Virus record (IMG/VR): IMGVR_UViG_3300043425_000840
Direction: 5' to 3' (one strand)
Length of the DNA: 58,566 nt
Origin: a virus
Taxonomy: Duplodnaviria; Heunggongvirae; Uroviricota; Caudoviricetes
Positions 33,656 through 57,415 of the stretch are shown here, one piece after another. The notes below the pieces were generated by a model. The model was not told the DNA's origin, made no database searches, and was given only the letters and a program-made list of their open reading frames with translations. Each line of letters opens with the position of its first letter. Position 1 is the stretch's first letter. The translations under genes and the position numbers were made by a program.

Positions 33656-35110
33656 ATGTCCGACGAACTAAGAGAATGGAGGAATAAAAATCTAAACTGT
33701 ATTAGTAAAAGTTTCTGTGCTGCTAAGTGGTACAATGCTAGTTTACATTTAGGACACGGATACACAAATTCCTGTCATCTTCCTTTACCACACCCTATTG
33801 ATTTAGAAGAGATTAAAACAAATCCTTCAGCGTTACATAATACTCGACACAAGAAGATTGCAAGAAAGATGATGTTAACAGGTATCAGACCTGCTGAATG
33901 TTCATATTGTTGGAAGATTGAAGATATTGGTCGTGATAACATTTCTGATAGGGTATATAAGAGTTTAATCTATACTGAAGAAGAAATAGCAGCACTTAAA
34001 GAGATTCCTTGGGAAGAAGACATCTTATTAAAAACTGTTGAAGTTAGTTTTGACCGTACTTGTAATTTTGCTTGTAGTTATTGTAACTCAGGTTATAGTA
34101 CAACTTGGGCAAAAGATATCAAAGAGAACGGAGCATATCAAAAGTTCAAAACAAGTAGTGCAGGTGCATATTATGCGGATGGTTCTTGGTCTGAAAAATT
34201 TGGAAAACACAACGAAAATAATCCATACGTACAAGCGTTTTTAGAATGGTGGCCTGAGTTATCAAAAACTTTACAAGAGATTAGAGTTACTGGTGGTGAA
34301 CCATCACAAAGTCGTAACTTTTGGAATTTCATTGATGTGATGAAACAACATCCTTCTGAAAACTTAAGACTTGCAGTTAACTCAAATCTTGGATTAAATG
34401 AAGCTACGTTGTTTAAACTAATTAGTATCTCTCACGAGTTACCAATTAAAGAATTTGATTTGTACACAAGTAATGAATCATTCGGTGTTCACGCTGACTA
34501 TATCAGAGATGGTCTAAAATATGACATTTGGAGAGCTAATATGGTTAAGTTTATTGAGAACGCTAAGTTCCGTTCATTAACCATTATGATGACAATTAAT
34601 AGTCTTTGTTTATTCAGTATAACTGAATTCTTAGATGATATGATAGTATTAAAAGAGAAGTACGGACCAAATAGACCAAACGTTGATTTCAACATCCTAA
34701 GATGGCCGTCATTTATGTCACCATTATCATTACCTGATAATATCAAATCTAAGTTACATCTTAAGTTAAAGAATTGGTATACTGAACATAAAGAGAGTCC
34801 TTTATTTAGTATTCACGAGAAGGCACAAATCGAAAGATTGATTGACTACATTGAAGTTGTTGAAAGAGGTCACAACCAAACAGAATTGGATAAAGACAAA
34901 CAATGGCACGACTTTAAGAGTTTCTACGAACAATATGATGTCAGAAGAAATAAAGATTTCAGAGCAACGTTCAATGACCCTGAACTAATTGAATGGTACG
35001 ATTCAATCAAAGTTGATTATTCAATACCTAATGTTCAAGTTACGGATGGTGCAATAACACACTTCGAACCTGGTGAGTACGTTTCAGATGTTAAACCCAA
35101 TATTATTTAA
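33656..35110 (+). CDS. Radical SAM protein with an N-terminal twitch-like cluster (paralog); C-terminal KPNII
   Basis: FCAAKW...SCH, CSYCW..E, CNFACSYC and VTGGEP. Confidence 0.9.
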   Translation: MSDELREWRNKNLNCISKSFCAAKWYNASLHLGHGYTNSCHLPLPHPIDLEEIKTNPSALHNTRHKKIARKMMLTGIRPAECSYCWKIEDIGRDNISDRVYKSLIYTEEEIAALKEIPWEEDILLKTVEVSFDRTCNFACSYCNSGYSTTWAKDIKENGAYQKFKTSSAGAYYADGSWSEKFGKHNENNPYVQAFLEWWPELSKTLQEIRVTGGEPSQSRNFWNFIDVMKQHPSENLRLAVNSNLGLNEATLFKLISISHELPIKEFDLYTSNESFGVHADYIRDGLKYDIWRANMVKFIENAKFRSLTIMMTINSLCLFSITEFLDDMIVLKEKYGPNRPNVDFNILRWPSFMSPLSLPDNIKSKLHLKLKNWYTEHKESPLFSIHEKAQIERLIDYIEVVERGHNQTELDKDKQWHDFKSFYEQYDVRRNKDFRATFNDPELIEWYDSIKVDYSIPNVQVTDGAITHFEPGEYVSDVKPNII

Positions 35111-36393
35111 TGAAATTAGTTTTTGAAGATATTGAAAACTTACACAACTTTACAAGTTGTCCTGATGTAAATCCATCAGGTATAAAGAGATTTACATATG
35201 CTCCGTTGATTAATGCAACGAATATGTATTTTGGGTTTACACATAAAGAATCCTTTTTACAATTTTTGAAATTGGATAACGATGTAGAAAACTATGTTAT
35301 TCCTGCTGCGGTTAATCACAGTCCTGAAGATTGGACAGGATATACATCAAGGGTTAAGAGTTTGTTTGAATATCTTAACCCAAAATATTTGAGTGATTTA
35401 AGAAACAAGAAAGCATTACTTTTATTAGACCAAAGTTTCGAAGGATACCAATCAAGATGGTTATGGGATTTTTTCCATACACATTGTAAGAAGTATAAAG
35501 TACCACCATCAAGTATTGTATATGTCACCGGTAATATGATTGCCGATGAGATTTATGATAAGTGGTGCATTGAAAATAAAATAAAAGAAAAGTTAAAAGT
35601 AATCCCATACGCGCATTTTGAATTAGATGTCGGGATGACCTGTTACCATTTTGATAGGGAAGGAAAACTACCAGATTTCGATACTCATTTAGAATACAAG
35701 AAAAAGAACAAAAAGAATATTAAAAGTTTTTCTTGTTTGAATAAAAGAATAAGACCTCACAGAGTTTGGTTTTATCGTTATATGTTTGATAATGATATTC
35801 TAAAAGATGGTTTGGTTAGTATGAATCAATTTCCTAAACATCAGTACCCATTTGAAGGTGAATATATGTCGGATGAGGTTGTTGATAAAATATATGAACC
35901 ATTACCATTATTGATATATGAGAAACCCAATAATGAATTTGACGACAACTACTACATTAGGAGATTAAATGAACAGATTTGTTTAGATAGTTGGGTTAGT
36001 GTTGTAAGTGAAGCGCATTGTGGTGATAGTGATGAAACAATGTTCTTAAGTGAGAAACTTTATAAACCAATTGCTTGTAGACATCCTTGGATGGTGATGG
36101 GTAATAAAGATAGTCTCGCAATGATGAAGAAAATGGGATATAAAACATTCTCTGAATTCTTAGACGAAGACTATGATAGTTTACCAACACACGAGAGAAT
36201 GAAAGCAATTATCGAAAGTGTTAAAAAGACAATTTCAGTTAAAAATAAAATGGAATGGTTCAAGTCAATGAGAGAAGTTGTTGAACACAATCATTCAAAT
36301 CTAATAAATAAATTATATCGATTACCTGATTCATTTGTTGAATTTCAAAAGTATCATAATCAATATTTTAACATCAAACAGAATTTAATATGA
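35110..36393 (+). CDS. Putative GT-B glycosyltransferase (GT10/fucosyltransferase-like SEK motif); C-terminal KQNLI
   Basis: FSCLNKRIRPHR, VSVVSE, FLSEKLYKPI...HPW..MG, GYKTF..FLDEDYD. Confidence 0.6.
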   Translation: MKLVFEDIENLHNFTSCPDVNPSGIKRFTYAPLINATNMYFGFTHKESFLQFLKLDNDVENYVIPAAVNHSPEDWTGYTSRVKSLFEYLNPKYLSDLRNKKALLLLDQSFEGYQSRWLWDFFHTHCKKYKVPPSSIVYVTGNMIADEIYDKWCIENKIKEKLKVIPYAHFELDVGMTCYHFDREGKLPDFDTHLEYKKKNKKNIKSFSCLNKRIRPHRVWFYRYMFDNDILKDGLVSMNQFPKHQYPFEGEYMSDEVVDKIYEPLPLLIYEKPNNEFDDNYYIRRLNEQICLDSWVSVVSEAHCGDSDETMFLSEKLYKPIACRHPWMVMGNKDSLAMMKKMGYKTFSEFLDEDYDSLPTHERMKAIIESVKKTISVKNKMEWFKSMREVVEHNHSNLINKLYRLPDSFVEFQKYHNQYFNIKQNLI

Positions 36394-36794
36394 GTGAAAG
36401 AAAATATTTACCAACATTAGCTGAATTAGTTGATAGGTTGAGTATATCACAATTAAAAGAAGTTTTTATTACGGAGCACAAAGAAGAATATGGTCAGGAA
36501 ATTAGTGACATTTTACACGACATTCAATTACTACTTGATGACAATGATGGGAAAATTACCGCCGAAACTATTAGAGCTATTGTTGTTTTATCTCAGATGA
36601 ATTTACATATTTGGCACAACGAATCTAACTATCGTAAAGGAATCAAAGAAGGTAATCAGTTAGAACTAACACACGGATTGAATGGTATTAGAAATACCGC
36701 TAAAAACAAAATACAAGAAATTGTTGGTGGTAGAAAAGATTACAAAATTGATTGTTTAGCTGCGGAATTTAAAGATTGGGAAATTAGTTGGTAA
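36390..36794 (+). CDS. Helical hypothetical protein (DUF4254-like)
   Basis: LVDRLSISQLK, NLHIWHNE and NGIRNTAKNKI. Confidence 0.6.
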   Translation: MSERKYLPTLAELVDRLSISQLKEVFITEHKEEYGQEISDILHDIQLLLDDNDGKITAETIRAIVVLSQMNLHIWHNESNYRKGIKEGNQLELTHGLNGIRNTAKNKIQEIVGGRKDYKIDCLAAEFKDWEISW

Positions 36795-56340: not shown

Positions 56341-57131
56341 TGTTAGTTGAAAATAAGTTTTTTTATTTGAGTTTACCGAGATGTGCGTCAACTGCCTTTC
56401 ATTATTCTTGTTTGGTTAATGATGTTAAAATTCAAACACATAATGGGGAGTGGGAGTTAGCGAATTCAGATATTGATTTTAAATCGGTGGATAAAAAAGA
56501 TTTGATGAACTATATCTATCACGGACACGAATCTTTAATTGATTTACAGAGTAAGTTTGGTAGAAACTATCCGATTATTGCGGTTAAAAGACAAAGACAC
56601 GAGAGATTTTATTCATTATATAAACACGTTTTATTTGATTTACAAAGAATGGGGTTTCATAAAATTTATAAAAAATTCTCCAAACTATCGTTGAATGAGT
56701 TATTCTTTTTTACAAAAGAAGATGTTGCAACTAAAAAACAAAGATGGGACAAGATATGTGAGTTCTTAATGGATTTAAAGTTGATTGACGAAAAAATAGA
56801 TATTTCAGTAACATCAAAATTTAAAAAGTCGGAAGAAGAATATTTTAAATCAAATACCAAAGGGTACGCGGTTAATATGATTGATATCTTATTAACTCCA
56901 TTATCTAATTGGACAAATAATGACCAAACAATAATTTGGTTTGACTTCAATGAATTGAATAAATTGGAAGAATGGGTGTCGAATATTTTAGAAAAACCTT
57001 TTGAACTTCATTCGGTTAATTCGAGTAAACATATGGAATGTGTAATAACTTTAGATGATGATTTTATAAAAAAGTACAACAGTATTTATGATTATTACGA
57101 CCTACCGAAATTAACCAAGACTTTAATATGA
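56340..57131 (+). CDS. Sulfotransferase-like protein; C-terminal KTLI
   Basis: FYLSLPRCASTAF (5'-PSB loop), VKRQRHERFYSLY (3'-PB-like R...R..S) and HSVNSS. Confidence 0.65.
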   Translation: MLVENKFFYLSLPRCASTAFHYSCLVNDVKIQTHNGEWELANSDIDFKSVDKKDLMNYIYHGHESLIDLQSKFGRNYPIIAVKRQRHERFYSLYKHVLFDLQRMGFHKIYKKFSKLSLNELFFFTKEDVATKKQRWDKICEFLMDLKLIDEKIDISVTSKFKKSEEEYFKSNTKGYAVNMIDILLTPLSNWTNNDQTIIWFDFNELNKLEEWVSNILEKPFELHSVNSSKHMECVITLDDDFIKKYNSIYDYYDLPKLTKTLI

Positions 57132-57415
57132 TAGATTATAAAGAAATTTTTGAGGCTTGGAAAACATCATTTAACCCAACACCTAAACAAGAGGAATTGG
57201 CAGAAAAAAGATTAAATGTTTGTTTGGGTTGTGATTACAGAAAAGAAGTTTTGAGGGGCGTGAAGTGGTCTGCTTACTGTGGTGATTGTGGGTGTCCTCT
57301 AAATAAAAAAGTATTCTCTAAAAATTTCAATCCTTGTACTAAGGGTTATTGGGAAGAAGTGGATTCAGATTACATAACACCTGTTAAAAATAAGAATAAG
57401 AGTACTTTAATTTAA
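57128..57415 (+). CDS. Small Cys-rich metal-binding protein; C-terminal KSTLI
   Basis: RLNVCLGC...CGDCGCPL..K......C..GYW. Confidence 0.75.
   Translation: MIDYKEIFEAWKTSFNPTPKQEELAEKRLNVCLGCDYRKEVLRGVKWSAYCGDCGCPLNKKVFSKNFNPCTKGYWEEVDSDYITPVKNKNKSTLI

Follow-up and report, generated by a model that had tools for sequence, protein, structure and literature searches.

Nine predicted proteins with a common C-terminus

The stretch of DNA analysed in this study, referred to as the window, comprises 58,566 nt of IMG/VR record IMGVR_UViG_3300043425_000840 (Caudoviricetes) and originates from an uncultured phage. The study concerns a short C-terminal peptide, hereafter the tag, that is shared by nine predicted proteins of the window, together with the gene starting at position 57507, whose product combines a YjfC-like ATP-grasp ligase domain, a Hint domain and a six-Cys peptide (Table 1). 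Open reading frames (ORFs) were called in six frames by a simple longest-ORF rule, without a gene finder, the longest non-overlapping frames being kept, and the tag was scored in the window as K-x(0-1)-[STNE]-[LI]-I at the C-terminus. Nine of the resulting 62 ORFs end in this manner and all nine lie between positions 33,656 and 57,415, an island in which nine of 28 ORFs are tagged as compared to none of 34 in the remaining window (Fisher P=3e-4). Nine [LI]I endings were observed where 0.71 would be expected from the composition of the window (binomial P=3.9e-8), the full motif is enriched at the C-termini relative to its internal frequency (P=5e-18), and shuffling of the last 20 residues returned a mean of 1.1 such endings.

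Table 1. Genes of the tagged island and its surroundings, with the last six residues of each tagged product and the positions of their codons
Product	Length (aa)	Position	Strand	C-terminus	Codons	Remarks
Radical S-adenosylmethionine (SAM)-like enzyme	484	33656..35110	+	VKPNII	35090-35107	Pfam Radical_SAM E=1.9e-4 (below cut-off); PHROG radical SAM matches
427-aa protein	427	35110..36393	+	IKQNLI	36373-36390	No Pfam or PHROG match
Short-chain dehydrogenase/reductase (SDR; NAD epimerase/dehydratase) + 2-oxoglutarate (2OG)-Fe(II) oxygenase fusion	590	39973..41745	-	VKKSLI	39976-39993	Pfam above cut-off
Prolyl 4-hydroxylase (P4H)-like 2OG-Fe(II) oxygenase	182	53325..53873	+	NKQNLI	53853-53870	Pfam above cut-off
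Short-form flavin adenine dinucleotide (FAD) tryptophan halogenase	414	53870..55114	+	LKKELI	55094-55111	Pfam Trp_halogenase E=1.2e-89
2OG-Fe(II) oxygenase-like protein	217	55116..55769	+	KEKSII	55749-55766	Pfam E=2.8e-4 (weak, sub-threshold)
P4H-like 2OG-Fe(II) oxygenase	189	55771..56340	+	IKKSLI	56320-56337	Pfam above cut-off
Sulfotransferase-like protein	263	56340..57131	+	LTKTLI	57111-57128	Language-model features only (0.96 to Sulfotransfer_2 clusters), a lead
Cys-rich (CxxC...CxxCxC) small protein	95	57128..57415	+	NKSTLI	57395-57412	No coupled downstream gene
YjfC-like ATP-grasp ligase domain + Hint + six-Cys peptide	first 353	57507..58565	+	untagged		Cut by window end
Adenosine 5'-phosphosulfate (APS) kinase; 120-aa protein; DUF2061 membrane protein	144; 120; 73	52337..53335	+	untagged		Directly upstream of tagged run

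An original prediction, made from the sequence alone, had listed nine modification enzymes with this ending, and recomputation returned exactly the same C-termini, coordinates, codons and junction types (ATGA at four of the tagged genes, TAATG at two, TAA-N-ATG at two and one uncoupled). Its statement that no fibre gene ends in this way was borne out, as the 34 upstream ORFs, large fibre-like genes among them, include none with the tag ending. The claim that the tagged proteins belong to unrelated folds stands firmly for the SDR-2OG fusion, the two P4H-like oxygenases and the halogenase, which have Pfam assignments, less firmly for the radical SAM-like and 217-aa oxygenase-like proteins, and by language-model features only for the sulfotransferase-like protein. 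The label of a glycosyltransferase-like enzyme that had been given to the product of 35110-36393 found no match in the libraries, paralogy to the untagged product of 45240-46511 (28% identity, E=2e-27) being all that could be shown; the product of 41746-43029 belongs to the same family.

Selection on the peptide rather than on the DNA

Related loci were retrieved from IMG/VR, 16 by means of the halogenase gene and a further 80 by means of the gene at 57507, and endings were counted over the 636 ORFs of the window and 11 relatives. Among these, 149 end in [LI][LI] (2.5-2.7% would be expected). It could be argued that such endings are a nucleotide-level by-product, arising through translational coupling, termination context or a junction sequence repeated for cassette shuffling, as ATA makes up 77% of the final codons and the majority of tagged genes run directly into the following start, in ATGA or TAATG junctions. 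However, the excess of ATA in the last codon is confined to coupled tagged genes and disappears in the 127 unique tagged ends that have no abutting start, in which the Ile codons ATT, ATA and ATC account for 54, 39 and 7%, against a background of 50, 35 and 15%. The Leu at position -2 (the last residue being -1) is encoded by all six Leu codons in roughly background proportions (TTA 66%, TTG 16% and CTA 11%, against 57, 17 and 10%), and hence by different tRNAs and different DNA words. A preference for A in the third base is general, as it is also seen in untagged coupled genes (66% versus 41%), while 237-272 untagged coupled genes of the same genomes show no enrichment of K or LI at their ends. 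In addition, the next ATG lies at varying distances from the tag and the substitutions encountered are conservative at the protein level, that is, among L, I, V, M and F.

Since the codons follow the background, uncoupled ends keep the tag and untagged coupled genes lack the ending, we conclude that selection is on the tag peptide and not on the DNA, in agreement with the original prediction, which had also considered and set aside A-rich coupling; orthologs moreover keep the tag when their neighbouring genes change, as it had suggested should be examined. A coupling artefact, an effect of the termination context and junction microhomology for cassette shuffling were accordingly rejected, given how diverse the codons and linkers are and given the 127 tagged ends that are uncoupled, leaving a nucleotide-level origin with almost no probability.

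Form and conservation of the tag

Around the ligase gene, 34 families that contain three or more unique members are tagged at 70% or more. When these families are given equal weight, the last residue is Ile in 68% and Leu in 23%, while position -2 is Leu in 76% and Ile in 21%. Position -3 is more varied (S 25%, T 23%, K 22%, N 8% and E 7%; S/T/K combined 70%), position -4 is Lys in 42% or Asn in 21%, and Lys recurs at -7 (31%). The tag is thus a C-terminal short linear motif in which a flexible linker with abundant Lys, Asn, Ser and Thr precedes [S/T/K]-[L/I]-[I/L] with a free carboxylate.

Within individual families the last two residues are [LIVM][LIVMF] in 90-100% of the unique orthologs while residues -8 to -4 drift, a single family containing ends as different as PKLTKTLI, QKEKITLI and PKSINTLI. 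An alignment of 35 orthologs of the 95-aa Cys-rich protein displays an invariant K(-7), variable residues at -6 to -4 and an end of the form [ST]-Phi-Phi, where Phi is a hydrophobic residue. All 60 unique orthologs of the sulfotransferase-like protein (56340) are tagged, with six different codons in use at -2, as are 41 of the 45 unique orthologs of the 217-aa oxygenase-like protein (55116), and orthologs of the SDR-2OG fusion end in KKSLI or VKKLI.

Two observations indicate that the tail has been appended and is exposed: the tagged radical SAM-like protein (33656-35110) exceeds its untagged paralog (31474-32892, 34% identity) by approximately 27 C-terminal residues, and an AlphaFold2 model of the 189-aa oxygenase (predicted local distance difference test, pLDDT, 91.7) shows the final five residues as coil, with a pLDDT of 77 for the last block. 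One ortholog of the untagged 41746 family was found to be tagged in another contig, where it ends in FFKTLI. Since this case adds to pairs of tagged and untagged paralogs within one genome, tags have evidently been gained and lost.

The original prediction had likened the tag to a class I PDZ ligand, which requires Ser or Thr at -3 and a hydrophobic last residue. This reading fits 48% of the tag by family weight, while the remaining families do not fit the pattern, and no PDZ_2 or PDZ_6 domain was matched in a complete 288.7-kb relative (described below) or in four partial relatives, although controls matched in 14 of 14 genomes; a PDZ reader might still be provided by the host. Dilysine KKxx, peroxisomal targeting signal 1 (PTS1) and clamp-binding motifs were also considered and dismissed, as the register or the consensus did not fit and most of these are eukaryotic signals.

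Tagged genes surround the ligase-Hint gene

The strongest clue to the role of the tag, and one that is absent from the original prediction, is that tagged genes surround the gene starting at 57507, which encodes the ATP-grasp, Hint and six-Cys regions in a single protein (the ligase-Hint protein). Across 66 loci that carry the full gene, the tagged share at ranks -5 to -1 upstream of it is 79, 91, 96, 100 and 87%, and at ranks +1 to +4 downstream it is 76, 94, 96 and 81%, while beyond rank 9 it does not exceed 5%. The same picture emerges from the complete relative IMGVR_UViG_3300012347_000377, a genome of 288,673 bp with terminal repeats, in which 22 of 398 ORFs (obtained by the same calling) are tagged: eight of these lie in an 8-kb block around the ligase-Hint gene and a few others encode SGNH-like enzymes. 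The original suggestion that the tag marks a coherent set of tailoring enzymes is supported, and the tagged families cluster around one precursor gene.

This distribution also bears on the notion of a cargo signal that loads the enzymes into a shell, be it the phage capsid or another compartment, in the manner of encapsulins. In encapsulin systems, cargo enzymes of unrelated folds carry a common short C-terminal peptide and their genes adjoin the shell gene, phage capsids have the same shell fold, and the tagged genes of the window lie downstream of fibre-like genes. The tag, however, clusters at the ligase-Hint gene and not at capsid genes, and the conserved neighbour is not a shell protein of the HK97 fold. 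The motif is also unlike known cargo peptides, the encapsulin consensus being rich in Gly/Ser and Leu, and the need of the tagged enzymes for soluble co-substrates (2OG, O2, FADH2, 3'-phosphoadenosine 5'-phosphosulfate (PAPS) and SAM) would favour activity in the cytoplasm. We therefore regard loading into a shell as very improbable.

The ligase-Hint protein and its peptide

Full-length relatives of the protein encoded at 57507 comprise approximately 497 aa. At the level of sequence it could not be placed, as it has no Pfam match, a PDB profile search yielded nothing meaningful and the 353-aa part present in the window has no match in PHROGs; likewise, no match was found in 50,697 phage records and no relative in 185,579 species genomes. 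A structure model built from 35 homologs is of moderate quality (pLDDT 64.8). Using this model, Foldseek returned Hint, intein and bacterial intein-like (BIL) matches (E=4.5e-7) and, for the N-terminal domain, a match to Escherichia coli YjfC (7uk6; E=1.1e-4, probability 1.0, template modelling (TM) scores 0.28/0.34 on the pLDDT 64.8 model). The ATP-grasp-like residues E21, N23, N25, K129 and R112 are invariant across the 35 homologs. The Hint domain ends in a conserved His-Asn, which is followed by a hypervariable tail of approximately 30 residues, the presumed core peptide, which contains six Cys, is rich in Trp, Pro and Tyr and usually ends in Lys followed by an aliphatic residue, this near-C-terminal Lys being conserved.

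As judged from the genes alone, such an arrangement, in which a variable six-Cys core lies next to a halogenase, 2OG oxygenases, sulfotransferase-like proteins and a radical SAM enzyme, is that of a cluster for a ribosomally synthesised and post-translationally modified peptide (RiPP). The residue types of the core (Trp, Pro, Tyr, Lys and Cys) would match the types of tagged enzyme, namely the Trp halogenase, the P4H-like oxygenases, the sulfotransferase-like protein with its APS kinase, and the radical SAM enzyme. Directly 5' of the ligase gene, the tagged 95-aa protein is encoded in aligned loci of the window clade and in both of the diverged lineages discussed below. On the 3' side, a conserved untagged ORF of 44-49 aa (MAxKER..RPAQTIK...P.S..LKTK.ATAF.AVV.AIK.KHLG) recurs in 55 or more of 65 loci and also in the two diverged lineages (L001:15143-15286, outside the window), and its product is a further candidate partner or substrate.

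For YgiC and YjfC, the solved relatives of the ligase domain, a peptide-spermidine ligase activity has been reported (Pederick 2023, as given in PMC12568646 and PMC11762307). Enzymes of this type presumably bind and activate the C-terminal carboxylate of a peptide, a property that neither citing paper states. The tag might be a substrate motif and not a docking handle, its C-terminal Ile or Leu carboxylate being activated by the ATP-grasp ligase and joined to an amine (for example a polyamine or lysine), thereby altering the charge, location or linkage of the enzymes. The resemblance of the N-terminal domain to YjfC, the retention of the ATP-grasp-like residues and the conserved near-C-terminal Lys of the core peptide are all consistent with such a role. 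Other ATP-grasp enzymes, such as RimK and tubulin tyrosine ligase, also extend protein C-termini. Nonetheless, the peptide to which the ligase is itself fused in cis is a more obvious substrate, and the stoichiometric modification of 10-15 different enzymes would offer no clear benefit, so that we deem this reading quite unlikely. A specific version of it, in which the YjfC-like domain would read K-x-[ST]-L-I-COOH, form an acyl phosphate and join the tagged enzyme to an amine, is decidedly improbable. In that case either a polyamine or the core peptide's conserved Lys might serve as the amine, the enzyme set could thereby become covalently tethered or re-addressed, and the process would be akin to ubiquitin-like or Pup ligation, yet built on a different fold.

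Diverged lineages and the reader of the tag

Two lineages in which the ligase is 45% identical retain the arrangement in which genes for tagged enzymes and for the tagged 95-aa protein accompany the ligase-Hint gene. In these lineages the tag is shifted towards Phe on several unrelated enzymes (four of nine and three of ten ends), as compared to 28 of 594 in the window clade (P=7e-4 and 0.012), and such a concerted shift on unrelated enzymes would be expected of a receptor that is shared and co-evolves with them. One of the two lineages has only KKPI after the His-Asn. These are the residues that follow the terminal His-Asn in a 649-aa form of the ligase-Hint protein (L139:10803-12752), which is 45% identical over the first 490 aa and has no Cys-rich core, although tagged enzymes and a radical SAM/SPASM enzyme are still encoded on its flanks.

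The reader of the tag might instead be a host AAA+ machine of the ClpX type or a protease that reads C-termini, in which case the tag would be a degron or unfoldase signal for timed turnover or remodelling. The ClpX signal on MuA is a C-terminal RRKKAI, and C-terminal motifs recognised by ClpXP resemble those of ssrA or MuA (PMC8138137). Ends such as KKSLI, KKELI and KEKSLI share the MuA-type form of basic residues followed by two aliphatic ones at a free C-terminus, on a protein of a mobile element, and the families as a whole resemble it in their Lys at -4 and -7 (42% and 31%) and their Leu or Ile at -2 and -1. No Peptidase_S41 or ClpP was found in the complete relative or in four partial relatives and any reader of a degron would therefore be a host protein. 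A degron does not, however, explain why 76-100% of the genes in ten positions around one phage gene are tagged while elsewhere in a genome of 398 ORFs the ending occurs near chance, and Ser/Thr(-3) and Leu(-2) are more constrained than in the MuA-type signal, which in addition is found on individual proteins, whereas the phage tag is borne by enzymes encoded in a cluster. The shift of the tag together with the divergence of a phage gene also fits a phage-encoded reader somewhat better, and we consider a degron unlikely.

Discussion

Based on the findings of this study, it is very probable that the tag is a selected peptide signal tied to the ligase-Hint peptide pathway. The best overall explanation, to which we attach middling confidence, is that it marks and recruits the set of tailoring enzymes of a phage peptide pathway; that it acts as a recruitment handle to a shared receptor is, in our estimation, evenly balanced, while the identification of this receptor as the ligase-Hint protein is plausible but on balance doubtful. 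In the mechanism that we propose, the pathway would be centred on one protein that unites a YjfC-like ATP-grasp ligase domain, a self-cleaving Hint domain and a variable six-Cys peptide. The tag has been acquired and retained by dozens of unrelated enzyme families in one phage lineage, and small enzymes that lack a recognition domain would bind by means of it, in turn, to one phage-encoded receptor near the substrate, the candidate receptor being the ligase domain of the precursor protein itself. This domain is the best candidate since it belongs to the sole protein in the middle of the cluster that is both conserved and untagged, and since YgiC and YjfC are reported to be peptide-spermidine ligases.

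Several points weigh against recruitment by the ligase-Hint protein. We infer both the binding of the tag to a partner and the identity of that partner, and docking, targeting to a compartment and timed turnover, which the original prediction had put forward, are likewise hypothetical. No covariation was seen between the terminal residues of the tag and of the core peptide (29% versus 22% Leu endings), and the Phe shift is derived from two lineages whose hosts may also differ. Three tagged genes of the window (33656, 35110 and 39973) sit 16-24 kb from the ligase gene in a nucleotide-sugar cluster, and in the complete relative a few tagged SGNH-like genes are more than 100 kb away from it, so that the tag is not strictly a feature of the operon. 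Conversely, certain enzymes of the island that possibly act on the same substrate are untagged, namely the PhyH oxygenase at 36842, two paralogs of the 35110 family and a carbamoyltransferase. The moderate quality of the ligase-Hint model and its weak match to YjfC count on the same side. When the ligase-Hint protein, represented by a 35-row alignment, and the C-terminal 36 residues of the 95-aa protein were submitted to complex prediction without controls, the score was 0.01, and this was counted in neither direction.

Among published systems, the nearest analogue is the tripeptide of the cytosolic iron-sulfur protein assembly (CIA) targeting complex, in which [LIM]-[DES]-[WF]-COO- recruits eukaryotic cytosolic Fe-S client proteins through the receptor Cia1/Cia2 (PMC10245660). 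It too is a very short C-terminal motif on unrelated enzymes that recruits them to one machine, and it was found through shared termini; unlike the phage tag, which is basic and aliphatic, has clients clustered in a phage genome and a receptor that is only a candidate, it is acidic and aromatic, eukaryotic and has a known receptor. Encapsulin cargo peptides and PTS1 are likewise C-terminal address peptides on unrelated enzymes, and encapsulin cargo genes also adjoin the receptor gene, but neither consensus is matched by the tag, neither a shell nor an import receptor was identified, and the central gene encodes a ligase-Hint precursor and not a shell protein. PTS1 consists of SKL-COOH and is recognised by PEX5. 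The recruitment of several tailoring enzymes to one ribosomal peptide is a problem that RiPP pathways solve by means of a leader peptide and a RiPP recognition element (RRE), and the content of the phage cluster is RiPP-like. The polarity of the phage system would nevertheless be reversed, the enzymes carrying the tag and the precursor (a 467-aa 'leader protein') carrying the reader; no RRE/PqqD-like domain turned up in general Pfam scans of the window genes and the neighbours in seven relatives.

A hub on which many enzymes take turns via a short, often C-terminal peptide, as proposed for the phage tag, is also known from clamp-binding and PIP-type motifs, for example QL[SD]LF of the beta-clamp (PMC11139829), although neither the Q nor the spaced hydrophobic residues of clamp motifs occur in the tag and the tagged enzymes are not DNA enzymes. 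T4-like marine phages (HTVC008M, Syn1 and S-PM2) possess homologous multi-copy 2OG oxygenase and halogenase genes, the halogenases being 29-36% identical; these homologs are devoid of the tag and the phages are devoid of the ligase-Hint gene.

The tag is restricted to one lineage of giant (~290 kb) uncultured phages. The source of the window would appear to be a jumbo phage of roughly 290-330 kb with a GC content of 31%, as indicated by completeness estimates of the CheckV type (75.7 kb corresponding to 23%; related contigs G002-G008) and by the complete relative, and a megablast search with the first 20 kb of the window found no match among phage records. The system is widespread, the ligase gene being present on approximately 90 IMG/VR contigs and all 117 full-length close homologs of the halogenase in metagenome protein collections ending in Phi-Phi. 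Short-form halogenase representatives at 37-46% identity are tagged too, while over a wider range 16 of 150 halogenase cluster representatives are tagged and the usual halogenases of approximately 500 aa are not. The closest cultured relatives of the enzymes, those of pelagiphage HTVC008M (36% identity for the halogenase) and cyanophage Syn1, also lack the tag, both on the halogenase and on the 2OG proteins. IMG/VR scans with two distant tagged halogenases (P0124 and P0146) returned no loci, and several contigs that encode distant tagged halogenases are too short to reveal the presence or absence of the ligase gene.

Peroxisomes, encapsulins and the eukaryotic Fe-S machinery are all known to use short address peptides at the C-terminus. 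In the literature we found no description of the present tag, nor of any C-terminal address peptide that organises a set of biosynthetic enzymes in a phage or bacterium. Should 10-15 unrelated small enzymes indeed be recruited to one precursor in this way, the tag would represent an alternative to leader-peptide/RRE recognition in peptide natural-product pathways and a portable five-residue handle for the building of enzyme assemblies. The tag in any case identifies genes of the pathway in giant phages, even those without a known family.

Other features of the window

The APS kinase, ~120-126-aa protein and DUF2061 families encoded directly upstream of the tagged run have no tagged members in any of the relatives. 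It is possible that the APS kinase set at 52337-53335 supplies PAPS to the sulfotransferase-like enzymes. A DUF2061 gene was also observed 3' of the halogenase gene in two distant short contigs (L137 and L138).

On the minus strand, a nucleotide-sugar cassette (37648-45200) encodes SDRs, an RmlC-like protein and a thiamine pyrophosphate (TPP) enzyme of split E1 alpha/beta type. Between convergent genes at 37619-37647 lies a GC-rich hairpin flanked by A and T runs (AAAAAGGGACTTATAGTCCCTTTTTT), which is likely a bidirectional intrinsic terminator that closes this cassette. Finally, adjacent proteins of the structural region (12078-14833 and 22262-23878) have shared endings of their own (...VIDCGGFF and ...VIDGGVY; ...TRARFGR and ...RTRFGI), which suggests that they are paralogous fibre or baseplate modules.

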